Positions 1,649-33,201 are shown, counted from the stretch's first letter. The stretch: DNA of 64,000 nucleotides from Strigamia acuminata (GCA_949358305.1 OX442314.1:10354001-10418000); one strand, 5' to 3'. Notes: generated from the sequence alone by a model not told the origin. Translations and numbers: made by a program.

Positions 1649-4600
1649 CTAAACGATTTTAAAATAAATCAAAAGCCATTGAGTAAAAAGAAAACATAAA
1701 TTAAATTCTCTACAAAATAAAACTGGTTTTAGAATTTATCAAAGCCTTTATTTACATCAAACGAAACGGATTTATGTTTTAAGTGAGCAATTTGGTGTCC
1801 ATTTTATTTTAAGTTGCCCACAGACGGCGCTATCAAGGACGGAAGTTGAATAAAACAAACACACAAACAAATATCGTGGCAAGTTAAATCTTGGACGAAC
1901 ACTAGTGTATAGTGGTGCTGATGCGCCACCTACAAATTGAAAATTGAATTCGTAGATTGGTGGCCCTGAGCTGCCACCAGAAAAATAAAATTTGAAGTTG
2001 AAGTTTCAATTTTTAATTTTAAATATTAAAATTGGAAAACTTAAAATAAAATAAAATTAAAAAATTAAAAAACTAAAACTAAAATTGTTTTGGTCGTTTT
2101 ATGACGATAATCTGTCGTGTAATTTCGTCTCAATCAGCACAAGGCGAGGTGAACAGCAAGATTAACTGTTTGTGTCCGTTCGTTTTTCACGTTATTTAAT
2201 TTGGGTTTGATTTCCAAAACGTTGGTTGGTTTCATAAACATGGGATTAACATTTCCGCAAATTTCTCAGCAAGTTTGAGTTCGTATTTCTTTGAAAAATG
2301 ATCCATTTATTGTCTTACATATGTTCTTTTGCTATTATTTGGCGCCATTTCAGGCCTACTATAGGCCTAGTTCAAAATGTATTTTCTTCTGAAACGGAAA
2401 TTTGTCCGAGATCATCAAGTCACGAAAATTTACATCGCTGCCGTTTCGGGTCAGAAACGGGTGCTGTGGGTGCTGTTTGTCGAGAAAAGTTCAAGCGCGA
2501 GTGAGAAGCCATCGCTGCCATTTTTGTCATTTTTGTCATTTTCTTATTCTTATTTACCAGTTTAGTTTAATATCTAGTCCATTGATGTATAATTTTAGTA
2601 TTTAATTTATAATATTTTTGTATTCCATTGTAAAGTTATTAGAATTTATTCGCAGCGACCGAATAAATTAAGTGTGTTTGCTTAATGAAAATTATTGAAT
2701 TTTCCTTGCCAGATTAAGTTAGTCAGAGAATTTAGTTATGTATAAGTCCCTTTGCGGCAACAGTAATTTTGCAGTGTAAATCAGGATCACAGGTTGCACA
2801 GACAACCTGGCTATCTTGTTTAACACCGTTAAACATGAGACCCAGGTTGTCTGTGCAATCGGAGCTAACACTGAGACGTGAGAAATTTATGAGGAAGAGT
2901 AGAATAAACAGGAGCCATTTTATTTTAACTGAAGAAATACAGAAGAAAATACATTTCGAACTACGCCTATAGTAGGCCTAAAATGGCACCAAACAACAGC
3001 AAAGGAACATATGTTAGAAAATAAATGGATCATTTTTCAAAAAAAAAAACTATTTTTTTCTTACTGAGAAATTTGCGGAAATGTTATATTAATCCCGTGT
3101 TTATGAAACCAATCGACCTTTTCGAAATCAAACCCGAATTAAATACCGTGAAAAACAACGAACACAGCATGTCGAACAGCAAAATCTTGCTATTCACCTC
3201 ACCTCGTGCTACAGATTATTGTTTAGCGTCTCGTATTGTAACAGTCATGGACTGTGGTATAGTTTATAGCATCGTCATAAAACGACCAAAACAATCTGAA
3301 TTTTTAGTTTTTCAATTTTTCAATTTTATTTTAAGTTTGCCAATTTGAATTTTGAAAATTAAAAATTGAAACTTTGTTTTAACACACTCCGGAGTCGTTT
3401 GTGCGGGACTGCTTGACATTAGCAGAATTTTTCGCAATGAAGATTCATCAGACGTTCAAAACTTAAGCTTAGCTTTCGCCTGGTTAAACTATATGTTCGC
3501 AAACTCGCTATTTTCTTCTACGAGCTAATAGATGCGGTACTGGGTTTTTCCATACATTTTGTTCGCATTGAATTTGTCGTCATCTTTATCGCGGGCGGTG
3601 TAATGTTTGTGTCTATAGCACTTGTAATTTGGGAGTAATATTTTCTATTTAATTTAAACTACTGGTACCTCCTATTATTCATCCCGAGTAGCTTAAGACA
3701 TCATCTATTCCATTGGAATCACTAAAAAGTATGTTTTTAATTACGACAATTTAAACCGATATAAATCGCCATTTACACGATTGTGTTGGCTCATTACATA
3801 TATTTAACTTACACCACTATCAATTTCTTGTCATGTTGTTACGAAGTCAGATAATTTATTTAGGTTTATTAATTGTTTACATTTGATTTAGTCCTATGGC
3901 TACTTGTGGTCACTCCCCTAGTGACCTTCTTTAGCTAGGGTGGCTTGTGCCACCCCCATCCCTGCTTTTAGAGTTTAACTTGCAAGAAGCCTTGCAGAGA
4001 AGTTCCATGTTATCCCTTTGATATTAAAAAATAAAAATATATATTTATTGTGGTGCATTTTCTCGTTCGTTTTGTTTATCATTACAATAACTGTACTGTA
4101 TGCGTTTGGCTTTTCATTTTTCGCGGGATTTTCAAATTTATAACCATCTTATTATATGCTTTGGGACAGTTCACCGATTAAGTAAGTATTGAAAGATAAT
4201 TCTTCTCGTTTATAATGGAGGAGGTTTGATGGCTACCGCTATTATTCTACTTATTTGGGAGCAATACGATACAATATGGAAATATGGAAAACAAGCAAAA
4301 TTAACAAAGTATGCCAAACAACTCGTTATCAACACCAAGAGTCAGAAAAAGCAGAGACAACAACAAAAAACAAAATCAAGGAAGTGAACCCAACGCATCC
4401 CAGCGTTTCCGTGTCAAACAACTGTGGTGGTTCCACGGTCACCTAAGATTTATTCTAGTTCAATTTCTTGACTATTCATGTAAATTCATTTGTACGTTTA
4501 ATAAATATCTATTGTTTATTTTAAATAAGTACACACCATTTATTTGAAAATAACGAGGCGGATAAGAATGGATAAGAGATTAGAAATAATCTTTTCCTGT

Positions 4601-5061
4601 TCCCTAGTCTACACAGTTCTACACAAACCGAAAAAGACACATTCAAACACCACTACAATCATTGACAGCATCAACGCCTCACCGATCAAGCCGTAGTATT
4701 TTATACCGGAGTGACCGAGGTAGTCGAGTTTTATCATTTATATTCAAATCAAGAAGAATATTCCTATCCCAAAGAAGTCGGGCAAGGAAATAGTATTGGC
4801 TTTAAGCAAGACAATAGCCACGTCACCACGTAGACTATTGTTAATAACCCTAGACAAACCAAGCCAGAATAGAAGTCTGGATGACTGCGCTTCCACCGCC
4901 ATCTTGAGCAATGAAGATTCGATCGCATTAGTTTGGCTGAATTATACTCGTGAGATTTCTGTATTGTGCCACGAGTTTGTAGAGGTGGTATTTCCCGTAA
5001 ATTTCATATCAGTAGAAGCAACTATTATCTATATTGGGGGAGGTTTAATGGCTATGATAAC

Positions 5062-5244
5062 TGTTATGTATCGATATGAGAATTTGGGTATCGCCCTCTG
5101 GCGGCGAATTATGTAAAGTGTAAACCACGTGACCATATGTATGAATGAGCTGTGAACTCACTCTGGTGTACTATAGTCTAGCAGCTAGCAGTAATAAACA
5201 CCGTCTACCATTTGATGTGTGTGCCACTTTACTAATATACAACA
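5062..5244 (+). repeat. 5' LTR
   Basis: TGTTATG...TACAACA, matches 9442-9624 and contains AATAAA. Confidence 0.96.
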
Positions 5245-5382
5245 ATGGCGACGAGGTTGGACTGAATTCGGTTCGTGTGTGAAGTTTGTGCGTCGCGGCA
5301 TAAAAAGCGTGTATTTGTGAGAAGGTTAGTGCGGTGCGCCATTTTGGTGTGTGTGACCTTCGCAAGGACGCAGCGAACGAGA

Positions 5383-8300
5383 ATGTCGGCCGTTATTGGG
5401 AAAATTGGTGAATTCGATGAGGCGAGGGAGGAATTCGACCTGTATTTGGAACGCCTGAAGTATTTTTTCGCGGCAAACGACATTGGGGATGAAAAACAGT
5501 TATCCACGTTAATGGCGGTAATTGGTCCAGCCGCATACAAATTGCTGAGGAATCTCATGCAACCCACGGAATTGAAGGATTGGAAGTGGGATGATGTTGT
5601 GAAAAAGTTATCTGAACACTACAAACCCGCTCCAATAACTATTGCGGAGCGTTTTAGATTTTTAAAAAGGGACCAAAAAACCGGTGAGTCGATTGCGGAT
5701 TATATTGTGGAATTGAGACGATTGGCGTCGACATGCAGTTACGGTACGTTTTTGAATGATGCGTTACGTGACAAATTCGTATGCGGTTTAGCAAATGAGA
5801 CGATCCAGAAACGTTTGCTGTCTAAAAAGGATTTGAAATTAGCGGTTGCAGTGGATACGGCGGCCGCCATGGAAATGGTGGAACGCGATTCGACGCAAAT
5901 TAAAGTGCCACCGGTCATTACGGTGAACAAATTGGACGGTGAACGCCCGTTTAGGCCAAGATTTGACAAAAGCAAGGACCGGAAGGCATGCTATCGTTGC
6001 GGATACGATCATCCCGTGGATAAGTGCAAATACGTAGGTGCGACGTGTCACGCATGTGGGAAAATAGGACATATTTCCCCGGTATGTAAGTCAAGGACAA
6101 ATAAAGACGCAAACCAGGAAAGGCGGACATTTCGGCCCGAGCAAAAATTCGCAAAGAAGCTCGAGGTTCAGGGATCGGAAAACGATGAAGACCAGCCGAT
6201 ATTCGACTTATATCCAGTGTATTCGATTGGTAAGGTCGAAAGTTGTAAAAAATATATGGTTCCGATTAAGATAGCTGGTGTGTGCATTGAAATGGAATTG
6301 GACACCGCGGCGGATATAGCTGTTGTGGGTGGAAAGTGGTTTAAAGAAAATTTTCCGTCAATGCCATTAAAAATATGCGAAATGACTTTACTTTCATACA
6401 GTGGTGATGTCGTGGAAACCGAGGGACAGACCGACATCACAATCGAGTATAAGGGAAGGAGATACGTGTTGCCACTGGTAGTGGTAAAAGGTGATCGCCC
6501 GGGACTATTTGGCCGAAATTGGATTGAGAAAGTGAGTTTGGATTTGAAAAGTATTTTTGCAGTGACCGAGGCGAAGTCTGATAAACCGGACACTGTTGAG
6601 GATTTATTGAAGGATTATTCCAGTTTATTTGAACCAACAAAGGAGCCAATAAAAAATTTTAAGGCGACCATTAAGTTGCGCAAGGACGCGAAGCCCGTTT
6701 TTTGTAAGCATCGGCCAGTGCCATATGCACTAAAATCGGCGGTCGAGGCCCAGATTCAACGACATTTGGATGCGGGAATCTGGGAGCGCGTGGAGCATTC
6801 GGAATGGGCCACACCGCTGGTAAATGTTGTCAAACCAGATGGATCGGTGCGATGCTGTGGGGACTTTAAGATCACGGTAAACCCATGTTTAGATATTAAC
6901 CAATATCCGTTGCCAACTCAGCAGGATATTTTTGCAACATTATGCGGAGGAGAAGAATTCTCTTCAGTCGACTGTTCGGACGCATATGAGCAGATCGAGC
7001 TGGATAAGCAGGCTCAGGAGATATTGATGTTAAACACGCATATGGGATTGATGCGCCCAAAACGATTGGTGTATGGGTTTGCCGGGGCGTCGGCTATTTT
7101 CCAGCGAGCAATAGATCAGATCATTCAAGGAGTGAAGAGAGTCGTGGCATTCCAGGATGATACGATGACCACGGCGCCATCAAGAATCGAACATTTGATG
7201 GTTTTGAGAACTTTGTTTCAGCGTTTCAGGAAGTATAATGTTTGTTTGAATCGGAAGAAATGCAAGTTCCTGCAGAAAAGAATCAAGTACTTGGGACATA
7301 TAATTGATAAGGATGGAATCCATCCTACTACGGACAAAATTGATGCGATAAATAAAGTGCCATCGCCAAAGAATATATCTGAATTGCGTTCCTTTTTGGG
7401 ACTTTTAAATTATTATTGTAAATTTCTGAAGGATTTGTCAACAAAGTTAACACCTTTATATAGTCTTTTGCAGGACAAGGTAGAATGGAATTGGACTGAC
7501 GAGTGCGAGCGAACATTTCAACAGTGCAAGGGCGCTTTGACATCTGAGGCGGTGCTGGTGCACTACGACGTTCGTAAGCCACTTCGATTGACGTGCGACG
7601 CGTCACCAGTCGGGGTCGGCGCCATTCTTTCGCACATCATGGCGAACGGCGAGGAGCGCCCCATCGGCTATTCATCCCAGACCTTGACGCAGGCCCAGCG
7701 GGGCTATCCGCAAGGAGAAAGGGAGGCTCTGGCAATCGTGTGCGGAGTGCAGAAGTTTTACCAGTACCTCGTCGGGAGAGATTTCACTTTGGTGACTGAT
7801 CATCTTCCATTGGTCGCGATATTTGGCGACAAACGGGGGATCCCGACGTTGGCCGCTGAGCGCATTCGTCGCTGGGCGCTTTTATTGTCCACATTCAGGT
7901 ATAAAATTGAATACAAACGCGGAAGTGAAAACGTGAATGCGGATGCGTTGTCTCGCATGCCGGTGTCGGACGGCGTCGTTGGCATCGAGTCGCACATATT
8001 TAAACTATCGTTTATCGATGAGATGCCAATTGTGGCGAAGAATATTGGTGCTGCGACAAGGAATGACAAAGTTTTGGGATCGGTTTTGCGTTATCTTGGG
8101 GACGGATGGCCGGATGGCGTAAGCGACCCGGAGATTGCGCCGTTTTCACGTCGGCGAGAGGAACTGTCTGTCGATGGCGGGTGTATTGTGTGGGGAATGC
8201 GAGTGGTGATTCCGACGAAATATCGCCCGCACATTTTGGATTTATTACACGATACTCACTCGGGAATGGTAAAAATGAAGTCGATCGCGCGTGCGTACGT

Positions 8301-9393
8301 ATGGTGGCCGGGTTTGGATGCGGAGATTGAGAGTGTTGCGAGGAAGTGTCATGCGTGCCAGCAATGCCAGGCTGATCCCCCGGAAGCGCCTTTCAGGTCG
8401 TGGTCGTGGCCGTCCGGCCCGTACGAGCGTATACACATCGATTTCGCCGAGTTGCGAAAGATACACTATTTAATCATATATGATAGTTTTTCGAAGTGGA
8501 TCGATGTGATTCCCATGACGACAACAACATCAGAGCGAACCATAGAGGTCTTACGGTGGAAGTTCGCGGATTTCGGGGTTCCGGTTGAGTTGGTGTCGGA
8601 CAACGGTCCTCAGTTTTCATCCGTGGAATTTGCGACGTTTTTGGCAATGAACGGGATCAAGCAGACGTTGGTGCCGGCATACCATCCCGCCTCTAATGGT
8701 GCAGCGGAGAGGGCCGTGCGGACATTTAAGGAGTCGTTGGAGCGTATGATGACCGATGTAAAAGACAATACGACTACAAGTCATAAGATTACGAGATTTT
8801 TATTGCGATATCGGAATACTCCACACGCGGTGACGGGTAAGACCCCTGCTGAGTTGTTTATTTGTAGGAATGTTCGAACGCGGTTCTCTTTGGTGAGGCC
8901 GGATGTGAGGCGCCATGTTCACGAACAATTGGATAAGATTCATAACGCGCAGACGGGGCGTGATGCCCGTGTTTTTGAAGTCGGCCAGGCGGTATGGATA
9001 AAGAGGTATCATACGCGCGGTCCAGAGTGGGTGCGCGGAATCATTAGCTCCGTTCAGAGCTCGAGGACGTACGTTGTGGCTGTCGGTTCGGTTTTGAGGA
9101 CGGTCCATATCGATCAGATGCATTTGGACCGTGAGATGCCTGCTGGGGGAACGACTCGGAATGATGTGGACGGTCGGGTTGACGTGGAGGAGCTCGATAG
9201 TGATCAGGAACAAACGGCACCAGACTTGGAGAACGCCGAGGCCGAAGAGGTCCAGATGCCGGAGTTAGTTCGGGACATCGTGGAACCTCGTGCGAACAAT
9301 GACATTCAAAACAATCCAGGTGACTGTGTACCGAGACGTCCTGGATTGCGTGCAAGAGAGCTATTGAAGGAACCGGATAGACTAAGATTGTGA
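5383..9393 (+). CDS. Gag-Pol polyprotein (single ORF, 1336 aa from ATG 5383)
   Basis: Gag with two zinc knuckles (CYRCGYDHPVDKC, CHACGKIGHISPVC), protease LDTAA, RT (AFQDD), RNase H (CDASPVG..EREALA), integrase HHCC plus DDE (HIDF, SDNGPQF, AERAV). Domain order PR-RT-RH-IN is Gypsy-type; no env. Confidence 0.95.
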   Translation: MSAVIGKIGEFDEAREEFDLYLERLKYFFAANDIGDEKQLSTLMAVIGPAAYKLLRNLMQPTELKDWKWDDVVKKLSEHYKPAPITIAERFRFLKRDQKTGESIADYIVELRRLASTCSYGTFLNDALRDKFVCGLANETIQKRLLSKKDLKLAVAVDTAAAMEMVERDSTQIKVPPVITVNKLDGERPFRPRFDKSKDRKACYRCGYDHPVDKCKYVGATCHACGKIGHISPVCKSRTNKDANQERRTFRPEQKFAKKLEVQGSENDEDQPIFDLYPVYSIGKVESCKKYMVPIKIAGVCIEMELDTAADIAVVGGKWFKENFPSMPLKICEMTLLSYSGDVVETEGQTDITIEYKGRRYVLPLVVVKGDRPGLFGRNWIEKVSLDLKSIFAVTEAKSDKPDTVEDLLKDYSSLFEPTKEPIKNFKATIKLRKDAKPVFCKHRPVPYALKSAVEAQIQRHLDAGIWERVEHSEWATPLVNVVKPDGSVRCCGDFKITVNPCLDINQYPLPTQQDIFATLCGGEEFSSVDCSDAYEQIELDKQAQEILMLNTHMGLMRPKRLVYGFAGASAIFQRAIDQIIQGVKRVVAFQDDTMTTAPSRIEHLMVLRTLFQRFRKYNVCLNRKKCKFLQKRIKYLGHIIDKDGIHPTTDKIDAINKVPSPKNISELRSFLGLLNYYCKFLKDLSTKLTPLYSLLQDKVEWNWTDECERTFQQCKGALTSEAVLVHYDVRKPLRLTCDASPVGVGAILSHIMANGEERPIGYSSQTLTQAQRGYPQGEREALAIVCGVQKFYQYLVGRDFTLVTDHLPLVAIFGDKRGIPTLAAERIRRWALLLSTFRYKIEYKRGSENVNADALSRMPVSDGVVGIESHIFKLSFIDEMPIVAKNIGAATRNDKVLGSVLRYLGDGWPDGVSDPEIAPFSRRREELSVDGGCIVWGMRVVIPTKYRPHILDLLHDTHSGMVKMKSIARAYVWWPGLDAEIESVARKCHACQQCQADPPEAPFRSWSWPSGPYERIHIDFAELRKIHYLIIYDSFSKWIDVIPMTTTTSERTIEVLRWKFADFGVPVELVSDNGPQFSSVEFATFLAMNGIKQTLVPAYHPASNGAAERAVRTFKESLERMMTDVKDNTTTSHKITRFLLRYRNTPHAVTGKTPAELFICRNVRTRFSLVRPDVRRHVHEQLDKIHNAQTGRDARVFEVGQAVWIKRYHTRGPEWVRGIISSVQSSRTYVVAVGSVLRTVHIDQMHLDREMPAGGTTRNDVDGRVDVEELDSDQEQTAPDLENAEAEEVQMPELVRDIVEPRANNDIQNNPGDCVPRRPGLRARELLKEPDRLRL

Positions 9394-9441
9394 AACATAG
9401 AAATTGTCGAATTTATCATTCATTGTTGTGGGGGGAAATAT

Positions 9442-9624
9442 TGTTATGTATCGATATGAGAATTTGGGTATCGCCCTCTGGCGGCGAATTATGTAAAGTG
9501 TAAACCACGTGACCATATGTATGAATGAGCTGTGAACTCACTCTGGTGTACTATAGTCTAGCAGCTAGCAGTAATAAACACCGTCTACCATTTGATGTGT
9601 GTGCCACTTTACTAATATACAACA
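9442..9624 (+). repeat. 3' LTR
   Basis: Matches 5062-5244; preceded by a polypurine tract. Confidence 0.96.
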
Positions 9625-12004
9625 ATAACCATTATTGTACTTATTTGGAAGTAATACTTAATATTTAATTTACATTTTCAGTATAATATACGGTATATAA
9701 CATTTTTTTTTATAGAATTCGGGGAAGATGTCACAAGTATACCCCATATGAGTGTTTTAGACTGAGTTTGGACTCCAGCAAATGAACGATCGCGGACGAA
9801 TAAATGAGGTTTTGGAACAGTTAGGAAGAGAGTTGTTTCATTGGCCGTGGCGGCCGTCACAAGATGCATTACGTACAAAGTTGCTGAGAAGTTAAAAATT
9901 TTCATGCGTTTATTATTCTGTTGCTAAATTTGTTTTAATATCTCCGTTTGGAATAAAAGTGTTTGGCATTTACTTGACTTGTTGGTTTTTTTTTTATAGT
10001 TATGGCGCTGATCGCATGTCAGTGTCCATATATCGAGAGAATTGCTTTTACCGTTAAAAGATTTTACAATTGCCACAAACACAGGTCCCTAAACGGAGTC
10101 AAGGAGTTTTTTAACTTCATAAAACACTGCCATTGGCTGAAATTATCACAAACAACATGAAGTTGAAATTAAGAAATAATTTAACTTCATTGCAGTTGCC
10201 AAAAATGCCAGCTATTCTATGGCAACCCAACACAAGAACAGTCAGGAGAAATTGTGGAAATAGTCAAGAGAAAGAGATAAAAGGATTCCAATAAGAGACA
10301 ATAAAACTGAACACACAAGAAACGAAAATAACTTTCTACCATGTTGTTGTTTTCCAACAGCAAAAAACTTTTCTTGCATTTGGTAATCTTATGAGGATTT
10401 TTGCAACTCTGGATAAAGTCATTTTGAAAAAAGTGAAAGTTTCTCAAAGGTTTACAAATATTTTAGTTGAACAACAACTGTCAAAATAACCCAATGGGTT
10501 TTTCCAATAGTGTTTTTTGATGCTTTACATCATTAAACAGCAAACGTGGCATTTTTCTTAAAAAATAATAAAAAAAAAAGCGAATTAACCTAGAATGAAA
10601 CCGATCCGACCGGTCTGTGCACGTTCAGAAACACCTTGAGCCGTCCCCAACAAAGATGAAAAGACAAAGAACCACTCCTGGCTGGCCAAAGTCCTGTTCC
10701 ATGGGTCATCCAGAAAAAGGTGATTGAAAAATTTTCCACACGCCCAGAGGAGCCCAACCAAGAGCATTTGAAACGATTGATTACAATTAAAAGAACAAGA
10801 ACCTTGACCATCCTCTGTAAAAACCAGGGTTCAGAAATCATATCCCAAACTGAAAACTTTATGTCATAAAAATGGCAAACGCCATTACCAATCACGAAAA
10901 CCCACAAGACAAATTCAATTTCGAATAAAAAATTCAACCAAACTTTGAAAAAACACCAAAAAGCACCAAATAATATTCTTGCCAAATAAATACTCAACCG
11001 CCACATAACTGAAAAAATACAGAAGAAAATACAATTCGAACTAAGCCTACAGTAGGCCTAAAATGACGCCAAACAATATCAAAAGAACATATGTAAGAAA
11101 ATAAATGGATCATTTAGAAATACGAATTCAAACTTGCTGAGAAATTTGCGGAAATGTTAATCCCGTGTTTATGAAACCAACCAACCTTTTGGAAATCAAA
11201 TGCGAATTAAATACCGTGGAAAACGAACACAGCATGCCGAACAGCAAAATCTTGCTGTTCACCTCGCCTTGTGCTGAGCGAGACGAAATTGCGTGACAGA
11301 TTATTGTTTAGCGTCTAGTATTGTTTATCGTCTCGTATTGTTTATAGCATCGTCATAAAACGACCAAAACAATTTTATTTTTAGTTTTTCAATTTTTTCA
11401 ATTTTATTTTAAGTTTTCCACTTTGAATTTTGAAAATTAAAAATTCAAACTTTGTATTCAAATTTTCCTCTTATTCCTTTTTTTTAAATTTCAATTTGCC
11501 CTGGATACAAATTGGATACAAATTAATATTACGAATGCTTTGTACGATGAATAAAATTGGTACATTTGGCATTTTTCCGTGGAGAAATGCGCGGGAGTTG
11601 TTTGTTTTCGTCACCTCACTCTGAAGCGTGAACTCGGTTTTTGCATTTCGTCTACATTAGCGAACCGCTTTTTAATTATTTCAAAAACTATGTTCAAAAA
11701 TGGGGAAAGGTTAAAGAGAAAGAAAGTGTACCGTAGTAGGTAACAAAATGGCTTCTTTTAGTCAGACCTCCCAAGTTAGACCGCGGATTTCAAATTTCTA
11801 AGAAAATTGATAAAAAAAACTTTTTTGCAAACATTTTGTGGCCCCATTGTAAATTTACACTCTTTATAGATATTTCCAACTTTTCACAATTATATATACC
11901 CGGTATATTGTATATAGAATATAATATGTATTATCTTTACGCCACCACCACTAAAGGCGCAACAGTATTTAATACTTCATATTTTAGTTTACACCACAAG
12001 AAAA

Positions 12005-12235
12005 TTCCTCCGATTATTATCCGGAACCGCCTGCGTGAGAGAGTACGCCAGCCAAAGGAGTCTGTGGCCGCATATGTTGCTGTTCTGCGCGGTCTCGCGG
12101 AGAAGGGAGAGTACAGAGACTCCAAGCAGGTGGACTTTGCGGTCATGGACCAGTTGATCGAAGGCCTGGGGAATGCCACGGCAAGACAGTATTTCCTATT
12201 GCAAAAGCCGAGTACTTTAAAGGAGGCCTGGAGGA
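12005..12235 (+). pseudogene. Second, further deleted copy of the gag remnant
   Basis: Near-identical to 21355-21585 and embedded in the duplicated unit. Confidence 0.75.
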
Positions 12236-18200: not shown

Positions 18201-18510
18201 TTACGAATGCTTTGTACGATGAATAAAATTGGTACATTTGGCATTTTTCCGTGGAGAAATGCGCGGGAGTTGTTTGTTTTCATCACCTCACTCTGAAGTG
18301 TAAACTCGGTTTTTGCATTTCGTCTACATTAGCGAACCCTTTTTTAATTATTTCAAAAACTATGTTCAAAAATGGGGAAAGGTTAAAGAGAAAGAAAGTG
18401 TACCGTAGTAGTTAACAAAATGGCTTCTTTTAGTCAGGGCTGCCTGAGCCTTATATATCGTCTTTTCAGACCTCCCAAGTCAGACCGCGGATTTCAAATT
18501 TCTAAGAAAA

Positions 18511-20392: not shown

Positions 20393-20720
20393 TTTGATAA
20401 AAAAAAATTCTTTGCAAACATTTTGTGGCCCCATTGTAAATTTACACTCTCTATAGATATTTCCAACTTTTGACAATTATATATACCCGGTATATTGTAT
20501 ATAGAATATAACATGTATTATCTTTACGCCACCACCACTAAAGGCGCAACAGTATTTAATACTTGTGGAAATTATATTGCCTAACTTAGGATTGGAACAG
20601 CAATGTTCTCTCCTCTCTCATAAAATATACAGAGCCATACAATAACAATTGCAAAATAACATTAATAACGCACGAAGAGGCAAAACATATTGCTCAAATG
20701 GTTGGACACAAACGCAACAC

Positions 20721-21582: not shown

Positions 21583-23473
21583 ACATGGAGTTTTCTAATA
21601 ACTCCACTTTTGATACTTTGTTTTAGCCGTATTGCTTTAGGTTTTTTCGTGCTGATTGGATTCGTGATTTCCAAATTGTTGGAAGAAGGGTTTTCCAAAG
21701 ACATGGACGGGCGAATATTGCAGATAAATTATGTAAAATGTGTTACCAAGACATGGTTTAACCAAAGGGGCCCGGAATCACTACGCCTATTGGTATAGAA
21801 CCAGAACCGAAGAAAACTTCTTGTTAAAACAATCTTTGACGTTTTTGGCCATTGAAGTGAGCCGTTTTTAATTTATAATTTAACATTTCTGTCCTCACGT
21901 GGCCGCTTTGTCCATTTAGGAAAATGCAATATTTTAGTAAATATAAATTTATAATTCACGTGTATTCTTAGTTTTAATGTGTTTAGAATAGAATAAATTT
22001 ATTTATTTGTTTGTTAATCCGTTTTCATTTGTCAGTCATATTTGTTTATTTGTTTATTTTGGAGGTGGTTTGATGGCTACCGCTATTATTCTACTAATTT
22101 GGGAAATTAGTGGAAGGTGTCACAGGTGCTCTCCAACAACTACACAATCACGGAAAAATAACCGAGTAAGCCTTAGAACGGTGCTGGCCACTAAGAGATG
22201 CTTTACGGCACGGCATTGGTGATTTTGCACTTTTAATTTGATAATTTTTAAAGTGACACAATCCAGAGTGATATAGCAAGGAACCATACAAGGAAGCACT
22301 GTTGTGATTCCAAATATAGCACAAATGTTAGTCCTATGTTTATAGTTAGTATCAATTCTGGTCACAATGTCCTGTCCAAAATGTGAGCCACAACTAAATC
22401 AACACTGCAAAAGGCCAAAAGTCCAGCCCTGACGACCATTGTGCCTTTGTGACCATTTTGACCGTGACCATGCCGTTTTCCGATAAGTATCATTTCATTT
22501 ATTATAAGTTAGTAGTTTGGTATTTATACTTCATTCTGTATATTTTATTTTTATTTGCAAGATTTGCAAAAAAACAAAATGGAAGTTTTGTCTCTATCAT
22601 GAAAACAAGACCTGGATACGTCGAAACATTCCAAGAAAACTAATTGTACAGGTACAAAGACAGGATTGGAAGTGGGAACAAAAAGGTACACTGTGTACGT
22701 TGCTCAGTTGGACCATAGGATCTCCATGGCAAGGATAAGCAAAGTAGAAAAAAAACAAAAAACCAAATGCATTTGTTTTTGGAAGGAAGCCAAGCGCCAA
22801 GAAAAGATAGAAACAGCGCGGAATAACAACGAATTGGTTATTTGTGACTTGTGCAATACTGTAGAACTGCTCAAAGAAGATTTGTTAAAATGCACAACCA
22901 CCCACTGAGTTGATCGGCACGAGACAGGTTTTTCTTTTGCTAAAAAATTAAGAAATTAACTTTTTAATATTTTATTTTCATTTCAATTTTTTTTGTATTG
23001 CAGGCAAATTCCCGGTATCCCACCCGGCCAGTCCAGCATTGGGGTTTTGTATCAGATAGGCAATAGTAGAACAAGTTATTAATATTGAACAAGAAATATA
23101 AATACAAACAGAAAGACAATCGGAAGGTTAGCCCAAGAAGTTTTAAAGGAGTGGAAATTGTTGAAAGATTCTTTTTTTTCTGTCCAGAGCGACAATTGTT
23201 TATATTGGAGGCGGTTTGATGGCTACGGCCATTACTCTGGTCATGTGGGAAATTAAGGGGCGTTGTCACAGCTACACCCCATACGAGTATTTTAGACTAA
23301 GAAAGTTTGCTCTCCAGCAACTAAACGATCACGGAAAAATAACCGAGTAAGCCTTAGAACGGTTTAGGAAAGAGGCGTTTTATTGGCTTTAGCGGCCATC
23401 AACAGACGATCTACGATCCAAAATCAAGACGTTACTTCAAAGTTAGAAGCTAACAAAAAGACAATCAGAGTAC

Positions 23474-23612
23474 GTCATCTGTGACTTTTGTAATACTGAA
23501 GAACTGCTGAAAGAAGATTTAATGAAGTGCCCGACCACCCACTGGTTTTGTCAAAATTGCATAAGGTACCAGGCCTAGAAAGAAGTGTCCCGAGGCAACT
23601 GGAAGATCGCCT
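23474..23612 (+). pseudogene. RNF216/TRIAD3-like RBR RING1 fragment
   Basis: Translates to VICDFCNTEELLKEDLMKCPTTHWFCQNCIRYQA*KEVSRGNWKIA (C-x2-C-x12-C-x3-H-x2-C-x2-C). Overlapping fragments lie at 13349-13533, 22726-22908 and ~15700-15755, where the stop codon reads GAG. Confidence 0.6.
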
Positions 23613-24424
23613 AACGTCAATCTCCATCAGGATCAAATCCTGCATGCAGGAATGGCCCTGTCGATTTCCTTCAAATATCAAATCGATAATTATGGTTCAC
23701 AGGTTTATAGATTGCCGGGCACGAAGAAAGCAAAGATGCGGAAAGGTGGGCACATTTTTTTCTATATTCTTTTTTTTCTTTTTGAACAGGAATTTGAGTT
23801 AAAACGCGTTTTAAGGACAAGGCAAGTTTTTTTTTTGGTTAGTTGATTTTGGTAAAAAGCTAGGTCTCTGGCTAAACTTTTCATTACTTTCTCTATACTG
23901 CAATACTGCAACGCGTTTTCTAAGCTTATATTTCAAACAGTCCGACTCTCTTAAAGCGTGCCATTAGAACCAGGAATAGTGGCAATGGCCAGAAGAGGAG
24001 TTAAAACTACGATAACAAAAAACTACAAATATGCAACCTTAAAGCTTAGGTTAGGCTGAGGAAATAAACCACAAGTGCATAAACTGGAAAAAACAGGATG
24101 CCAGGTTGAAGAAATGTAGACACAGAAGAGATAAGTCAAAGAGAAAATTTCAATTTCACTTAATCTTAATCCTTTTTTAGAATTAGAATTCTTAGAGATA
24201 TGCTATAAAACCGTCCTATGTTGTTCATAAAAATCATTTCAGTTGGGAGTTGGAATGTCAGTCCATATGGCAGTATAAAGCATGAAAGATTAAGAACTAC
24301 ATCCCAATTTTTGCCCAAAATATTCTTCATACTACAACTCAAGAAATAGAAAAATAGAAATTTGTATACAGAAATAAGAGAACCAATCACAAAAAATTGA
24401 TGTAATGTCAGTACACCTGCAAAA

Positions 24425-25100
24425 GCCATCCGCAAATGCATTTTTCCATCTGCAAATGCATTTTTTCCATCTGTAAATGCATTTTTCCATCTGCAAATGC
24501 ATTTTTTCCCATCTGTAAATGCATTTTTCCATCCGCAAATGCATTTTTCCATCCGCAAATGCATTTTTCCATCTGCAAATGCATTTTTCCATCTGCAAAT
24601 GCATTTTTCCATCTGCAAATGCATTTTTCCATCCGCAAATGCATTTTTCCATCTGCAAATGCATTTTTCCATCCGCAAATGAATTTTTCCATCTGCAAAT
24701 GCATTTTTTCCATCTGTAAATGCATTTTTCCATCTGCAAATGCATTTTTTCCCATCTGTAAATGCATTTTTCCATCTGCAAATGCATTTTTTCCCATCTG
24801 TAAATGCATTTTTCCATCCGCAAATGCATTTTTCCATCTGCAAATGCATTTTTTCCATCTGTAAATGCATTTTTCCATCTGCAAATGCATTTTTTCCCAT
24901 CTGTAAATGCATTTTTCCATCTGCAAATGCATTTTTTCCCATCTGTAAATGCATTTTTTCCCATCTGTAAAAGCATTTTTTCCCATCTGTAAATGCATTT
25001 TTTCCATCTGAAAATACATTTCTCCATCTGCAAATGCATTTTTACATCTGTAAATGCATTTTTACATCTGTAAATGCATTTTTTTCATCTAAAAATACAT
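24425..25100. repeat. Minisatellite, 20-22-bp unit CATCTGCAAATGCATTTTTC
   Basis: About 30 tandem copies; the source of the repetitive ORFs at 24166-25039. Confidence 0.95.
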
Positions 25101-28100
25101 TTTCTTTGCTTGAAAATGTCATTTTAGAAGTTTATGACCATCCTCTGAGCCACTGATCACTTTGAAAATAAAAACCAGGTTTCAGAAATCAAATCCCAAA
25201 CTAAACACTTGATGTCACGAAGAATGAAAAATGCCATTACCAATCACGAAAACCCACAAGACAAATTCAATTTCAAATGAAAAATTCAAACCAAACTTTG
25301 AAAAACCACCAAAAACGACCAAATAATATTCTTGCCAAATAAATAATCAACCGCCACATAACTGAAGAAATATGAAAGAAAATACATTTCGAACTAGACC
25401 TATAGTAGGCCTAAAATGGCGCCAAACAATAGCAAAAGAACATAGTAAGACAATAAATGGATCATTTTTCAAAGAAATACGAATTCAAACTTGCTGAGAA
25501 AATCGCGGAAATGTTAATCCCGTGTTTATGAAACCAACCGACCTTTTGTAAATCAAACGCAAATTACATAACGTGAAAAACGAACGAACACAGCATGTCG
25601 AACAGCAAAATCTTGCTGTTCACCTCGCCTTGTGCAGATCGAGACGAAATTACGTGACAGATTATTGTTTAGCGTCTCGCGCTGAAAACGGTTCTTCTGC
25701 CCATGCGCAGAAAAGAAAACAATCCGACGACTACGGAGATTTGTTGGGGCCATCTGTCTTTTTCTTGCATCAGGGTGACTTCACTTTCTACAATTTAGAT
25801 AAATTTTTAAAATTGAAAAAGCACGTTGGGTTTGCTTTAAAATGTCATCAGGTTCGTTTTCATCGTCCATTACCAAGGTAGGAAATTTTCACGATCAGTT
25901 TGAATACGTTGTATTCAATTTGATCTCGGAGTGAATCGCTAAACATACTTAAAATTTCATTGATTTGAGCGTAAAAACCACAAACCCCCATCGTTTTGTG
26001 GGTGTTTTATAATTTTTCTAATTAAAAAAAAAATTAATTATTTTTTTTGGCTATTTACAGTACATCAACTTGAGGATCTAATTTTGATGATTTTGGTCAT
26101 TTTTATTCAAAAATTACATTTTTGCACCTGTAATAGTCGAATTTCACATATAAAATTACATTTTTCTGCCTACACACGCACTTTTGTCCCTTTTTCATCT
26201 ATTCTTTAAGATTTAATTTACAACAAACAAAATCACATTCAACATAAAAACACCAAAACTTCACAATTTTTCACTCAAACCTCGACCTTAGCAAACTTCA
26301 GGAAAATGCAGCTGGACTGGGTACAAATATAGTACCGGGAAATCGGGATGAGTCGGGCCACAGCCAACAGGGACAGGCTAGGGTGGACAGGGACAGGTCA
26401 CCGGGAAAAAAGTGGAAAAAAGTGAAAAAATTGGAACCCATCCTAATTATTTCCTAGACAACAAGCAAGGAGAATTTTCTAAATATTCCCTTACCAAGTC
26501 ACGGTCTGGACTGCCGTTCAAGCAACCGTTTTGTAACGTTTTACAGTGAGTGTTATAATAAAACAAGTCGGACTAATATGGCAATTAGGACTAGAAGCCC
26601 CTGCTAGCTATTCTACGGCAACCCAACACAAGCACAGTCAGGAGAAATTGTGGAAATAGTCGAAAGAAAGAGATAAAAGGATTCCAATAAAAGACAATTA
26701 AAAGTTGGATTTTTGCAACTCTGGAGAAAGTCATTTTGAAAAAAGTGAAAGCTTCTCAAAGGTTTACTAATATTTTAGATTAACACTAGAACAGCTAGAC
26801 TGGTCAAAATGACCCAATGGGTTTCCAATAGTGTGCTTTACATCATAAATCAGCAAACGTGGCATCTTTCTTAAAGAAGAATAAAAAAAAAGGAGAATTA
26901 ACATAGAACGACTGCACGCAATGTTTTGGCGTCAAATTGATTTGTTTTAAATAAAGAAACATAAAAAGACAAAGAACCACTCCATGAGTCATCCAGAAAA
27001 AGGTCTCACTCGAAATACTCCGTGCATGTAAACATAGTGTTTAATACTTCATATTTTAGCAATGAATTTTACGATTCGTTTACACCCGAAGAAAATTCAT
27101 TCATATTAATCGTAGCTTATGAAATTAGAAATTTACTTCCTGTCTACCAAGTCGCAATCTGGACTGCTGTTCAAGCAAAAGTATTGCCACGTTTTTCAGT
27201 GAGTGTCATCATAAAGCAAGTGCAACTGATTTGGCAATTACACCTAAAAGCCCCTAACACCCCACGCGTTGTATACGAACATTACGATTTGGAAGGGGTA
27301 GTACAATTGATTTTGAATTTGGATTTTTTTTTAAAGGTGGAAATTATATTGCCTAACTTAGGATTGGAACATCAATGTTCTCTCCTCTCTTTAAGCAAGG
27401 ATCAGTGTCACCCTGGTTATGGTGTGGCTAAGTTCTTGTCTTTAGTGTTATTATAAAAGTAATAAGTCATTTTGGTCACATTGAAGTGTTAGAATTATTA
27501 TTATTGAGTTTGAAAGTGTGCACACTCATTTGTTAAAAGGAGGCGGCGGCGGCGGTTGGACCACAATCCTGAATGTGTTTTCGCTGCTACAACAAATCTT
27601 TTCGATGGGATCAGCAATTTAGATTTTAGATTTTCTGTAATTTCACTAACATTTTATATTATATCTAGTATTGTGTAATTTAAGTATTATCTTTGTAATA
27701 CTAATTTATTCTCTCAAAGAATAAATTATTTGATTATCTTTTGAAACATTAAGCCTTTTTATTTGGCCATAACTTTAATTTAAAGCATTATTTGAATTAG
27801 TTTGATAAGTCTCTAGTAGAGCAACCAGTTGTAGTTTTGAAATTGACAAGAGCAATTTCAGGATCACAATGGGCATTGCCGGTTTACTTCTTATTTATTT
27901 ATTTATTTTATTTATACACATATTAGAGAATATGAACAAAATTTTGAAATTGCACGAAATCATCAGAATTCTGTATGTCATGGAAGATATCATTATTCTG
28001 CGTTAGACAACGAGAGGATTTGTTATTTTGTATCCAGTATGGCACGTCCAAGAACCCATCACGAATGGAATGAATTTGCAATTAAATATGTAAAAAAAAT

Positions 28101-31100
28101 GATTTTATAAAATATTATAAAAAATATAATTTTTATACATATTTTTATATATATTTAGTTTCCTGAAGGGATCACGGCCAGGGCTCTGCAGAGTCATTTG
28201 TATAAGCTGCAGGAAGGACCATGTTATTTGTATTGGCTGTTAGTTGGTGTATTAATTGCCCTTGGAACGGTCATTTTGTTTACATTGAAGTCTCTAGTAC
28301 TTGTAGAGCAAGCAGTTGTAATTTCAGGATCACAACAGTAGAGACATGTACGTTTGTCAACCTTCACAAATAACATAGAATAGAAAGTAACATCTACTCT
28401 GTTTCTGAGGTTGCCTTGCCAACATCAAAAAATGTGAGAATAACAAAATATATGTCCAGTGCAAAAAAATCAACCTCTCGTGTAAATGAATGCAGAAATA
28501 ACAAAAAACAAGAAATAGCAGCGCTAAGTGAATATTTTAGTAAATATAAATTTATAATTCACGTGTATTCTTAGTTTTAATGTGTTTAGAATAGAATAAA
28601 TTTATTTATTTGTTTGTTAATCCGTTTTCATTTGTCAGTCATATTTGTTTATTTTGGAGGTGGTTTGATGGTTACCGCCATTACTCTACTAATTTGGGAG
28701 ATTAAGGGAAGATGCCATAAGTATACGTCGTACAAATGTTTTCGACTTAGAGAGTTTGCTCTCCAGCAACTACACGATCACGGAAAAATAACCGAGTAAG
28801 CCTTAGAACGGTGGCGGCCGTCAAGAGATGCTCTAAGATCCAAAATCAAGAAGTTACTTCAAAGTTAGAAGCTGAAAATTATTTATTTATTATTCTATGT
28901 TGCTAAATTTGTTTTAATATCTCCCGCCAAGAATGTTCGGAATAAAAGTGTTTGGTATTTACTCGATTTGTTTGTGTTTTTTATCACTGAAAAGTAATGG
29001 CGCTGATCGCTTGTCAGTGTCCATATATCGGCAACTTTTACCGTTAAAAGATTTTACAATTGGCACAAACACAGGTCCCTAAACGGAGTCATGGAGTTTT
29101 TTAACTTCATAAAACACTGCCATTGGCTGAAATTATCACAAACAACATGAAGTTGAAATTAAGAAATAATTTAACTTCATTGCAGTTGCCAAAAATGCTA
29201 GATATTCTATGGCAACCCAACACAAGCAGTCAGGAGAAAGAGATAAAAGGATTCCAATAAGAGAGAATAAAAAGTTGGATATTAACCAAATTGAACACAC
29301 AAGAAACGAAAAAAACTTTCCACCAGGTTGTTCTTTTGATTTCAATTAAAGTTCTGATTAAGAAGAGATAATTGAGTGAATCAATTTATTTATCAGTTTA
29401 GTCAGTTATTAAAAGAAATTTTAGATTAAAATCCAAAGTGATATAGCAAGGAACCATACAAGAAAGCACTGTTGTGATTCCAAAGTTAGCACAAATGTTA
29501 GTCCCATGTTTATAGTTAGTATCAAGTCTGGTCACAATGTCCTGTCCGAAATGTGAGCCACAACTAAGTCAACACTGCAAAAGACCTCCATTTTCGGAGA
29601 CATTACGGTATTTTAGTTACTAATTTGACTAATCGTCATCCAACAGTATCGCAATACATCCACCCATAGTACACAATAGGAACCGATTAAAAGGATTAAA
29701 TGGAAGAGAGATGTGAAACGTGCCAGTACGACCATTGTGCCTTTGTGACCATTTTGACCGTGACTATGCAGTTTTCCGATAAGTATCATTTCATTTATTA
29801 TAAGTTAGTAGTTTGGTATTTATACTTCATTCTGTATATTTTATTTTTATTTGCAAGATTTGCAAAAAAACAAAATGGAAGTTTTGTCTATCCTGAAAAC
29901 AGGACCTGGATATGTGGAAAGATTCCAAGAAATGATCCAGACTTTTTCTGGAACTAAATCTGTATCGTTCTAGAAACGATTTAGTTTAAACTTGGACAAA
30001 TAGAGTCCAAGGTTTAAACTTTTAAAGTTATAATTTTTTTTAATTCTTTAGTTTACTTAAGTTTTCTGCTGTTTTTCAGTAATTTTCAACAGTGTAAAAA
30101 GATGGATTTCACCAGAGGAACAAACAGAAACAGGTTTTCTTTTGCTAAAAAATTAATAAATTAATTTTTAATATTTAATTTTCATTTCATTTTTTTTTGT
30201 ATTGCAGGTATTTAGAAGTGGAGGAATTCTTGGAGTTATATCCAAATTTGGAAACCTATTTTAAAAAAGACAACAGAAAAGAGAGTCCTCTATATGAGTC
30301 ACATGTAAGATCTTATGTAGTGACAAAATATTTTTACCTACAAGAAAGTGACTTGACAACACTCATGAAAAGCCACCGTTACATCTTAACGCCGATTGTG
30401 AAGGTGGTTTCAGCCCATTCATGGTAATTTAATAAAAAGAAAATTATTTTTTAAGAAATTGTCATAAAATAATAGCATTGTAAATCCATACAGCTGTTGT
30501 AAACACTAGAACGGCCAGACCATGACCGTTCTAGTGTTAATAAAAAAAAATTAATTGCAGGTCCGTTAAACAAGAGGGCCAGGTTGTGTGTGGCACCTGA
30601 GGTTGAACCTGAGGTTAAACCTGTGGTTACTCTGAGACTCAAGAAAAATCGCCGGAGGAGTGGACCCGTCATTTTCCCGACACAAATTTCTCCATTATTC
30701 GAGAAGGAGAAATACTACGTGGAAAATATCGACACATTCGAAAGTGTGCAAACGTGATATTTTGGCATATATTCGTCAAAACAATTTGTAACATTTTGGG
30801 AGTGCCAAGTCACATTTTTGGAATGAAGATTTGTTTTAACAAGAAGGGAATTGTATTTCAAGCATTGTAAGCATGGATTCGATCAAACGGACACAAAAAG
30901 ACAGGTTTTTCTTTGCTAAAAAATTAATAAATTAATTTTTAATATTTAGTTTTTATTTTATTTTATTTTTGTATTGCAGGGATTTAGAAGTAGAGGAATT
31001 TTTGGAATTATATCCGAATTTGGAGAGTTATTTCAACGACGACAATAGAAGCGAGGGTGCCTTATATGAATCGCATGTAAGAAGTTAAGTGATGACTAAA

Positions 31101-31511
31101 CATTGTATAGGCACATATTGTGCACGTATTGTGCATGTTTGGTGTGTAATTAAAGGTCTGTGCCACCCCCATCCGTGCTTAGAGTTTAACGTGCAAGAAG
31201 CCTTGCAGAGAAGTTTTATGTTATCCCTTTGATATTAATAAATAAAAATATATATTTACTGTGGTACATTTTCTTGTTCGTTTTGTTTATCATTACAATA
31301 ACTGTACTGTATGCAATTTGAGTTTTGCAATTGGGGTTTGCGGAATTAGCAAATTCATAAGCATCATATTGTGTGCTTTGGGACAGTTACCCGATTAAGT
31401 AAGTATTGAAAGATAATTCTTTTAGAGTAGAAAAAAACTTAATTCACAGGGTATTTTTAACCTAGGACGAAAAAAATACAAGGAGCACGAGCCGCGGCCA
31501 CTTGCTGGAGG

Positions 31512-31622
31512 CAGTGCTAGACTGGAAAGAAATTTAGTACCGGGAAATGATCGAGCCACGGGAACAAATTTATACCGGCCACCGGGAAGTTCCCGGTATC
31601 CCACCCGGCCAGTCCAGCATTG
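31512..31622. mobile_element. Short hAT-like TIR element; related ends at 14700/15418, 20111, ~23010-23041 and ~26310
   Basis: Termini CAGTGCTAGACTGG and CCAGTCCAGCATTG, with internal ACCGGG/CCCGGT repeats. No clear TSD. Confidence 0.55.
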
Positions 31623-33201
31623 GGGTTTTGTGTCAGATAGGCAACAGTAGAACAAGTTATTAATATTGAACCAGAAATATAAATACAAATAGAAAGACAA
31701 TCGGAAGGTTAGCCCAAGAAGTTTTAAAGAAATGAAAATTGTTGAAAGATTTTTTTTTTCTGTCCATATATCGGGAGGTTTTTAACTTCATAAAACACTG
31801 CCATTGGCTGAAATTATCACACAATATGAAGAAGTTGAAATTAAGAAATAATTTAACTTCATTTCAGTTGCCAAAAATGCTTGCTATTCGATGGCAACTC
31901 AACACAAGCACAGTCAAAAGAAATTGTGGAAATAGTCAAGAGAAAGAAATAAAAGGATTCCAATAAGAGACAATAAAAAGTTGGATATTAACCAAACTGA
32001 ACACACAAGAAACGAAAACAACTTTCCACCATGTTGTTGTTATTTTAAACAGCAAAAATTTTTTCTTGCATTTGTTAATCTTATGAGGATTTTTGCAACT
32101 CTGGAGAAAGTAATTTTGAAAAAAGTGAAAGCTTCTCAAAGGTTTACAAATATTTTAGTTTAACAACAACTGTCAAAATGACCCAATGGGTTTTTCCAAT
32201 AGTGTTTTTTGATGCTTTACATCAGAAAACTGCAAACGCGGCATTTTTCTTAAAGAAGAATAAAAAAAGCGAATTAACCTAGAATGAAACCGATCCGACC
32301 GGTCCGTGCACGTTCAGAAACACCTTGGGGCGTCCTCAACAAAGATGAAAAGACAAAGAACCACTCCTGGCTTTTAAAGTCCTGTTCCATGGGTCATCCA
32401 GAAAAGGGTGACTGAAAAATTTTCCACACTCTCAGAGAAGTCCAACCAAGAGCATTTGAAACGATTGATTACAAATAGAAGAGCAAGAACCTTGACCATC
32501 CTCTGAGCCACTGATTACTTTGAAAATAAAAACCAGGGTTCAGAAATCATATCCCAAACTGAACACTTCATGTCATGAAAAATGGCATATTACGAAAACC
32601 CACAAGACAAATGCAGTTTCAAATGAAAAATTTGAAAACTTTGAAAAACCACCAAAAAGAACCAAAAAGCTCCAAAAGGCGCATCAAATAATATTCTTGC
32701 CAAATAAATACTCAACTGCCACATAACTGAAGAAATACGGAAGAAAATACAATTCGAACTAGGCCTATAGTAGGCCCAAAATGGCGAAAAACAATATCAA
32801 AAGAACACATGTAAGAAAATAAATGAATCATTTAGAAATACGAATTCAAACTTGCTGAGAAATTTGCGGAAATGTTAATCCCGTGTTTATGAAACCAACC
32901 AACCTTTTGGAAATCAAACGCGAATTAAATAACGCGAAAAACGAACACGACATGATGTCGAAGAGCAAAATCTTGTTGTTCACCTCGCCTTGTGCTGAGC
33001 GAGACGAAATTGCGTGACAGATTATTGTTTAGCATCTAGTATTGTTTATAGCATCGTCATAAAACGACCAAAACAATTTTATTTTTAGTTTTTCAATTTT
33101 CAATTTGTAGGTGGCGCATCAGGGCCACCACACTAGTGTTCGTCCAAGATTAAATAAACATAAATAAAATGTAACAAAATAAAATAAAAAAAGCAAATTA
33201 C

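Follow-up and report, generated by a model that had tools for sequence, protein, structure and literature searches.

A one-ended, head-to-tail expansion of a gene-fragment-bearing inverted-repeat element in a methionine synthase intron of the centipede Strigamia acuminata

The described systems closest to the locus reported here are DNA transposons that carry host sequence or multiply their own ends. Animal Pack-TIRs are non-autonomous terminal inverted repeat (TIR) elements with intron-bearing, single-copy host cargo, for which short or absent microhomology (median 2 bp) and an origin by gap filling or fork switching are reported (Tan et al. 2021, PMC8277862). Mutator-like elements (MULEs) with extra or solo TIRs are plant elements of ~1-1.4 kb that combine long TIRs and gene fragments with either a single additional solo TIR or tandem TIRs in pairs, the internal TIR lacking a target duplication of its own; their solo-TIR forms are mostly single-copy (Ferguson and Jiang 2012, PMC3310237). 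In Ac/Ds composite insertions (14-24 kb), re-replication duplicates the ends together with flanking host DNA, and the products are joined by homologous recombination or non-homologous end joining with little microhomology (Zhang et al. 2014, PMC4270019). Tandem DNA-transposon arrays and KolobokP multimers lie head-to-tail at one site, expand by unequal exchange and often have deleted junctions (McGurk and Barbash 2018, PMC5932611; PMC9587614), while Galileo/foldback elements have long arms with internal repeats, defective copies from abortive repair, and nested insertions (PMC4168063). Here, we describe a locus that shares features with each of these systems: a 31-kb repeat block inside one intron of the methionine synthase gene (MTR) of Strigamia acuminata, contained in a stretch of 64,000 nucleotides (GCA_949358305.1 OX442314.1:10354001-10418000; hereafter, the window).

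The block is a large one-ended expansion of an inverted-repeat element bearing gene fragments, inside the intron of a housekeeping gene. Inverted arms of ~500 bp close it off on the left (1888-2391) and on the right (32724-33149), and five right-arm copies (four internal, three of these truncated) stand against a single left arm, so that five units can be counted (units 0-4, with right arms R0-R4; Table 1). A preliminary description, made from the sequence alone, had recognized a head-to-tail concatemer of four units ending in the same terminal module. The concatemer is present and these four units are borne out, each with an arm, but the description did not include a fifth, short unit at 2392-3380, nor the left arm, the host intron, the duplicated host flank, a nested Gypsy element or the gene cargo. 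Unlike the Pack-TIRs of Tan et al., the block reaches 31 kb and has five right ends, several diverged cargo paralogues and a copy of its own insertion flank, although the supplementary table of that report (PMC8277862) could contain larger or multi-ended cases. It differs from the MULEs in lying in an arthropod and in having four additional right arms, every one of them accompanied by kilobases of cargo. Whereas Ac/Ds composites are single recent events with two reversed ends and 8-bp duplications, the block records numerous old events and shows no pair of reversed ends. In tandem arrays and KolobokP multimers, whole elements repeat or direct terminal repeats are shared; here, repetition is confined to the right end, there is one left arm, in inverted orientation, and 52 bp of host flank lie at one junction. 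In contrast to Galileo, neither a THAP/P-type transposase nor a 7-8-bp consensus target is shown here. The locus is likely an unusually large case of the known swelling of introns by transposons. As a natural example from an animal, with dated layers, it would document the in-place duplication of cargo and host flank by a transposon end, which experiments have shown in maize and which has been inferred for Pack-TIRs. It would also offer one way in which an intron of 290 nt can grow to 31 kb within a gene-dense region of an arthropod genome.

Table 1. Window coordinates of the host exons, inverted arms, units, cargo and nested or neighbouring repeats.
Feature	Position	Strand	Details
MTR exon upstream of giant intron	33202-33552	-	open frame; 92% to P0122 aa 551-669; Pfam Pterin_bind
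Giant MTR intron	1649-33201	-	31,553 nt, GT...AG, phase 0
MTR exon downstream of giant intron	1550-1648	-	matches P0122 aa 668-700
Left inverted arm	1888-2391	-	inverted match to five of five right arms; core divergence 8.5-13.7%
Right arm R0	2926-3380		truncated; in unit 0
Right arm R1	11006-11466		truncated; in unit 1
Right arm R2	16963-17584		full-length; in unit 2
Right arm R3	25359-25680		truncated; in unit 3
Outer right arm R4	32724-33149		in unit 4; alternatively ends ACA 33132 before CTAG 33133-33136
Unit 0	2392-3380	+	short, most diverged; decayed RNF216-like intron end and exon piece, 65-bp hairpin, R0
Unit 1	3381-11466	+	cargo blocks, nested Gypsy, terminal module 10023-11005, R1
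Unit 2	11467-17636	+	cargo blocks, block X three times, module 15993-16962, R2
Unit 3	17637-25680	+	spacer S 17637-18150, cargo, nested elements, 3' part of module, R3
Unit 4	25681-33149	+	module fragments, cargo, MITE, block X, module 31774-32723, R4
Internal copy of host-intron flank	17585-17636	+	copy of 33150-33201; ends at intron 5' splice site
RNF216-like exons upstream of RING1	30206-30740	+	42% to P0001 aa 287-352, E 2e-13; profile E 8e-12
Diverged copies of these exons	30981-31094, 15602-15703, 13640-13730
RNF216-like RING1 exon with stop codon	23441-23605	+	40-49% to P0001 aa 398-472; profile E 2e-10 to 0.02
Other RING1 exon copies	22744-22905, 13408-13530, 15701-15763
Exon-like block with hydrophobic helix	28650-28878	+	candidate exon; six or more diverged copies
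Copies of hydrophobic-helix block	3490-3638, 4208-4260, 4950-5061 + 9627-9890, 12790-12956, 15064-15230, 22038-22205, 23187-23456
Young Gypsy-type long terminal repeat (LTR) retrotransposon	5062-9626	+	4,565 bp; identical 185-bp LTRs, 5-bp target duplication
Inverted-repeat element	18513-20390	.	~250-bp arms 87% alike, GC-rich internal repeats, TA on both sides
Broken gag-like LTR retroelement piece	20619-21737	+	3' part also at 12007-12389
20-bp minisatellite	24426-25103	.	33 copies; in unit 3
Small palindromic miniature inverted-repeat transposable element (MITE)	31512-31622	.	6 matches vs 0.07 expected
Minisatellites	807-1102, 24426-25103, 33797-34026, 35587-35939, 38230-38658, 42341-42951, 46339-47128, 50334-50915, 59555-61154, 61892-63498

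The host gene is defined by 20 exon matches on the minus strand (76-100% identity; ungapped tblastn of the window against the Strigamia MTR protein, P0122), none of which contains a stop, apart from one match that extends 9 nt into an intron; an additional row of 11 aa at 16637 is due to chance. The methionine synthase of Strigamia maritima matches the exon at 33205-33549 with 93% identity, the next best named matches reaching 70-78%. The exons ending at 33202 and starting at 1648 join in frame, in agreement with P0122, and the remaining gaps between exon matches measure 36-430 nt. The giant intron measures about 290 nt once the block is subtracted. The MTR gene around the block looks intact, and the whole block (about 1888-33149) sits within one of its introns. 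No splice of this intron is present among the contig pieces listed for run X4, which does have a contig from which the adjacent 64-nt MTR intron is spliced out; the loose end of an X4 contig at 1871 has no match to the right flank.

Directly after R2 lies a 52-bp copy of the host sequence whose original directly follows R4 (E 1e-13); at 5.6%, its divergence is similar to that among R1-R4. The copy can only derive from this locus, and an internal right arm with a host-flank copy implies that at least one duplication took place here. At the junction of R1 and unit 2, the arm is joined to the inner end of spacer S at a common 8-nt word, from which the boundary before unit 2 likely once resembled that before unit 3. 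A terminal 15-mer occurs exactly three times in the window (left arm, R2 and R4) against 0.10 expected. The outer ends can be read in two ways. Under the first, TTAA (1884-1887 and 33150-33153) flanks the element, which requires one extra left base, and the bases beyond TTAA are CCTT at R2, TCTT at R4 and ATCTT on the left. Under the second, the ends are TGT (1906) and ACA (33132), with CTAG (1902-1905 and 33133-33136) duplicated inside a 30-bp palindrome. Three contigs of run X3 with a loose end leave the window just outside 1906-1918, which leans towards the second reading. The 13 nt past CTAG are common to both ends in inverted form, and an 8-nt word at 1901-1908 is repeated at 33131-33138, but it is part of the palindrome.

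The units are mostly collinear with one another. On the best collinear chain, the fraction of shared bp is 1912/2069 for units 1 and 2, 715/768 for units 1 and 3, 1643/2565 for units 1 and 4, 2797/3327 for units 2 and 3, 2611/4094 for units 2 and 4, and 1529/1841 for units 3 and 4, or 64-93% of the shared sequence. Any single master order nevertheless needs at least six backward steps at three identity thresholds, compared to four for five collinear units, a bound that assumes an ancestor without internal repeats above 90%. An annealed block order gives 13/131 backward steps, which is an upper bound only and not the natural order. With the left arm and nested elements masked, inter-block matches are direct in 179/180 cases, and there are no inversions between units. 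Divergence is star-like among arms R1-R4 (5.5-9.1%) and among terminal modules (6-9%), rises to 8.5-11% towards the left arm and to 11-14.5% between R0 and the other arms, and falls to 2.8% (44/1,591) in the 5' halves of units 2 and 3. This unevenness points to several events of different age.

These results bear out much of the preliminary description, which saw differently deleted, partly collinear and partly permuted head-to-tail derivatives of a shared ancestor. The alternative it named, ordinary tandem duplication, predicts strict collinearity and uniform divergence, and the units show neither. Its six example matches are recovered at or within ~20 bp of where it placed them, with E-values far beyond chance: 11480-11800=18160-18510 as 11480-11807=18152-18511 (97% outside a 32-bp gap); 11810-11980=20395-20563 as 11807-11977=20394-20564 (97%); 12005-13160=21355-22410 as 12007-13174=21355-22416 (96-97%, one 103-bp gap); 3940-4205=14358-14610=31139-31420 as 3934-4205=14351-14610=31159-31421 (88-89%); and the set at 14080-14210 as 14077-14213=15420-15553=23043-23179=31624-31759 (90-95%). 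The segment at 20555-20620, described as a deletion form of 27040-27390, indeed lacks 27050-27336 (287 bp), with no microhomology.

The contig comparison covers 1110-20100, and its evidence comes from the 32 pieces listed of about 6,700. Runs X1 and X2 may be the source of the window itself, whereas X3 belongs to a separate study. Individual contigs run from the left flank into the arm (X1 with 0 differences, X3 with 5), from the inner end of the left arm to R0 (X1, X2), from R0 into unit 1 (X3), and from R2 through the flank copy into spacer S (X1, X2, X3). As far as tested, at four junctions in two studies, the repeat structure is real and no assembly error. Summed contig depth, which is no true copy number, differs strongly along the block: in X1, cargo bins have 147-375, the single-copy MTR bin 464, and module and arm bins 3,603-6,765, with unique contigs at 87-103. 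The same contrast is found in X2 and X3, with arm and module far above single-copy depth in 3/3 well-covered runs. It suggests that the arms, block X and the module belong to a dispersed family, while the cargo is mostly local. A 27-mer from the arm has 0 matches in a metagenome scan.

The nature of the cargo emerges from one frame of unit 4 (stops read as X), which has a single match among 1.84 billion proteins (E 2.9e-7), a Strigamia RING/IBR protein (P0001) whose relatives are named RNF216-like (133 matches); three related proteins are recorded for Strigamia maritima. An RNF216-like profile of 894 positions, built on the first 60 of 120 fetched proteins, matches seven places, on the plus strand only and at profile positions 408-590. 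It finds the conserved region upstream of RING1 and RING1 itself, and it does not find IBR or RING2; the 30638-30733 part of the upstream exon region is a weak match (E 2.4). The cargo exons keep their introns, with six copies of one RNF216-like splice acceptor on the plus strand and none on the minus strand. The frames contain stops and run antisense to MTR throughout. Paralogous exon copies are only 70-86% alike, which suggests that several paralogues or old internal duplicates are involved. The cargo is therefore likely made up of broken, intron-bearing pieces of RNF216-like ubiquitin-ligase genes, for which no function is suggested. The locus points both to this cargo and to a repeat family without a transposase match, and the broken state of the cargo, with no function suggested, limits its significance.

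The match of the unit 0 peptide to the exon at 30563 is equalled by 7/2000 shuffles, and the corresponding DNA match by 0/200. A word search with the RING frame gave 0/70 candidates, a PDB search retrieved RNF216 at E 1.1 only, and the literature searches made for transposons with RNF216 retrieved no paper linking the two. For the hydrophobic-helix block, no family was found in Pfam, the PDB, a word search or the Atlas. Three candidate identities, an ionotropic-receptor piece for this block (best Atlas score 0.81), a chromodomain and a death domain, received no support from the PDB, Pfam or the Atlas, and the putative chromodomain segment aligns weakly with RNF216 instead. Within unit 0, part of the RNF216-like exon piece recurs in inverted orientation and forms a 65-bp hairpin at 2794-2858, the sole inverted cargo match. 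Unit 4 also includes single-copy stretches (25681-26491 and 27391-28530) in which exon-like frames occur at 27961-28200 and a MITE-like piece lies near 26311, and the pieces of them that were scanned match no Pfam family.

TIRs are present at both ends (~500-bp arms with a common terminal 15-mer), and, as in Pack-TIRs, host gene sequence in the form of RNF216-like exons with introns lies between them. Six-frame Pfam searches of 1878-5061, 9627-18500, 20396-24420 and 25110-33154 returned 0 families in 24/24 frames, and none of 27 short pieces reached a curated Pfam cut-off. The open reading frame (ORF) of the module has no usable match in the Atlas, and Rfam gives 0 matches. PiggyBac elements have a TTAA duplication with CC/CY termini; their DDE_Tnp_1_7 transposase has no Pfam match in the six frames, as expected for a non-autonomous copy. 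Mutator elements and MULEs have an 8-11-bp target duplication and a MULE transposase, which likewise has no Pfam match in the six frames. Helitrons end in 5'-TC and in a hairpin plus CTRR-3' without terminal symmetry; the motifs are present here, but the symmetry of the ends continues past CTAG and extends over ~500 bp, and no Rep or helicase remnant passed a cut-off in the Pfam frames or the protein library. Kolobok elements combine a TTAA duplication with 5'-RR...YY-3' termini (PMC9587614), whereas the ends here begin CC, TC or AT under the TTAA reading; KolobokP has long terminal direct repeats at both ends (PMC9587614), whereas the left arm here is inverted. Ginger elements have TGTNR termini, a 4-bp duplication (CCGG/CCGT, or an RTATAY target) and TIRs of 40-297 bp (PMC2836005). 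A 4-bp duplication and TGT ends fit the CTAG reading, but the left end is TGTAT, the target CTAG and the arms ~490 bp.

We read the block as a non-autonomous, long-TIR, Pack-TIR-like transposon with gene cargo, whose right part was re-copied head-to-tail in place, after which the array lost sequence to deletions and took up younger elements, with a probability of about 0.65. A cargo-bearing member of the family would have inserted into an MTR intron of ~290 nt. Breaks at or near its right end, likely during family activity, may then have been repaired out of register from the sister chromatid, so that this sequence would have been copied through seven times or more, once with an extension of ~52 bp into the flanking host DNA. 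Deletions within units and across their borders could have made the different subsets and the backward jumps, some exchange with dispersed family copies may have occurred, and the Gypsy element presumably inserted later. Removal by splicing and the antisense position of its exons relative to MTR are the likely reasons why the array is tolerated. Given that 179/180 matches share one orientation, deletions across the boundaries of a local tandem array would suffice without template switching, but structure alone cannot tell template switching during repair from deletion in a longer array. A further-reaching form of this reading, which we consider doubtful, holds that the block belongs to an unclassified centipede family of long-TIR elements whose full-size members carry RNF216-like genes, the right end being a fixed copying point. 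If so, self-templated re-replication would have enlarged an intron of ~290 nt ~110-fold and shuffled paralogue exons while the element never left.

Several observations weigh against the favoured reading. Microhomology, which the preliminary description had proposed to score at the junctions, is modest. Clean indels with at least 3 nt number 9/21 before filtering, and once three tandem-unit changes, one low-complexity deletion in an arm, the nested element and one duplicate are dropped, they number 4/15 (null 8.1%, P 0.028). An automated junction set gives 4/26, and it mixes true and false junctions and is not relied on. Some module positions are low in X1 depth (10616: 113; 16304: 236; 14156: 197). 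No transposase remnant is found in the Pfam frames, the short pieces, the protein library or the Atlas, and it is from the arms, the end motifs and the depth that the block is called a transposon. Both the exact ends and the target duplication allow more than one reading, and neither an empty site nor a second insertion site is seen. The trigger of the duplications is inferred, as structure cannot show it. Finally, the arm closest to R4 is R1, with which it shares a 7-bp deletion, although R2 carries the R4 flank. The 4-bp indel that divides R1/R4 from R2/R3 is frequent in family contigs (1527/5900 depth in X1, 14634/28276 in X2). Pure local copying does not explain this conflict, and some exchange with dispersed copies is likely.

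The same conflict speaks for serial gap repair, in which the element was repeatedly excised and the gap refilled from different, deleted dispersed copies, so that the units would be foreign derivatives. The star-like 6-9% divergence of the modules and the frequency in family contigs of indels that separate local arms or modules (17181, 10158) also agree with it. We nevertheless consider it unlikely, as the host-flank copy can come from this locus only, the cargo common to the units is at near-local depth, and a stretch of 1.6 kb common to units 2 and 3 has diverged by 2.8%. Tandem duplication of a host segment with RNF216-like paralogues, the arms being incidental insertions of a common repeat, would account for the largely collinear, single-orientation units, for exons that are 70-86% alike and for the three related proteins of Strigamia maritima. 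Against it, matching inverted arms with the terminal 15-mer flank the array on both sides, an arm ends every unit, and removal of the block leaves an intron of normal size, and we judge it very unlikely.

We give barely as much weight to the origin favoured in the preliminary description, a rolling-circle or strand-displacement concatemer of defective copies, Helitron-like or extrachromosomal, inserted as one piece. The head-to-tail, single orientation of the units is compatible with it, as are a GC-rich hairpin followed by CTAG near the right end, a left end that can be read as A followed by TC, and a match to Herpes_Helicase in one module frame (E 0.0016; 17 bits against a cut-off of 27). 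That match does not recur in the unit 4 copy or in a library search, and no Rep, PIF1, helicase or polymerase remnant exceeds the cut-off in the Pfam frames, short pieces or protein library. The arms are symmetrical over ~500 bp and the ends share 13 nt past CTAG in inverted form, the units are 3-14% apart and so did not arise in one event, and the internal flank copy is local. RNA-templated growth, in which the spliced-out intron was reverse-transcribed and re-inserted, draws on the fact that the flank copy stops at the donor GT (33201), but this observation is post hoc and single; 4/5 exon-side bases match too, so that copying probably extended into the exon by a few bases, and the sequence beside it is not the intron 3' end (9 and 6 of 200 shuffles are as good), which makes this origin hardly credible. 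An assembly artefact has next to no standing: although none of the contig pieces listed spans the whole stretch or the 11466 boundary, in a comparison that ended at 20100, the copies are 3-14% apart and four junctions are bridged, three of them in X3 of another study.

The array has itself received younger insertions. The nested Gypsy element has one uninterrupted gag-pol ORF of 1,372 aa (Pfam RVT_1, RNase H, rve and gag). Its contigs have ~5x single-copy depth in X1 (441-479) and X2 (1116-1409), compared to near single-copy depth in several X3 contigs (39, 32), which suggests that copy number may differ between samples. The inverted-repeat element of unit 3 is absent from the sister copy in unit 2 (at 11807), where the site also lacks three further bases. 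Its two arms have diverged by 13%, compared to 2.8% for units 2 and 3, and unit 2 may therefore have lost the element instead of unit 3 having acquired it. The broken gag-like piece has weak Pfam matches below the cut-off (PNMA / Retrotrans_gag) and is 32% identical to the gag of the nested Gypsy element (E 4e-7). Lone halves of the palindromic MITE lie at block junctions (14700, 15405, 20111 and 23028).

AT-rich minisatellites with units of 10, 20-21 and 31 bp are found in many host introns, and several are mutually 65-75% alike in either orientation. The minisatellite of unit 3 has inverted matches of 67-75% to 42341-42927 and 46792-47116, arrays in the introns of a neighbouring gene. Elsewhere in the window, an ORF of 219 aa with a Cys-rich end and no Pfam match lies at 54740-55399 (+), and a Syntaxin-5-like gene at 37371-38997 (+; Pfam Syntaxin-5_N) is arranged head-to-head with MTR. 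Exons with PHD and WSD domains (Pfam) occur at 45392-50165 (-), in what we take to be a chromatin gene of the BAZ1/ACF1 type.

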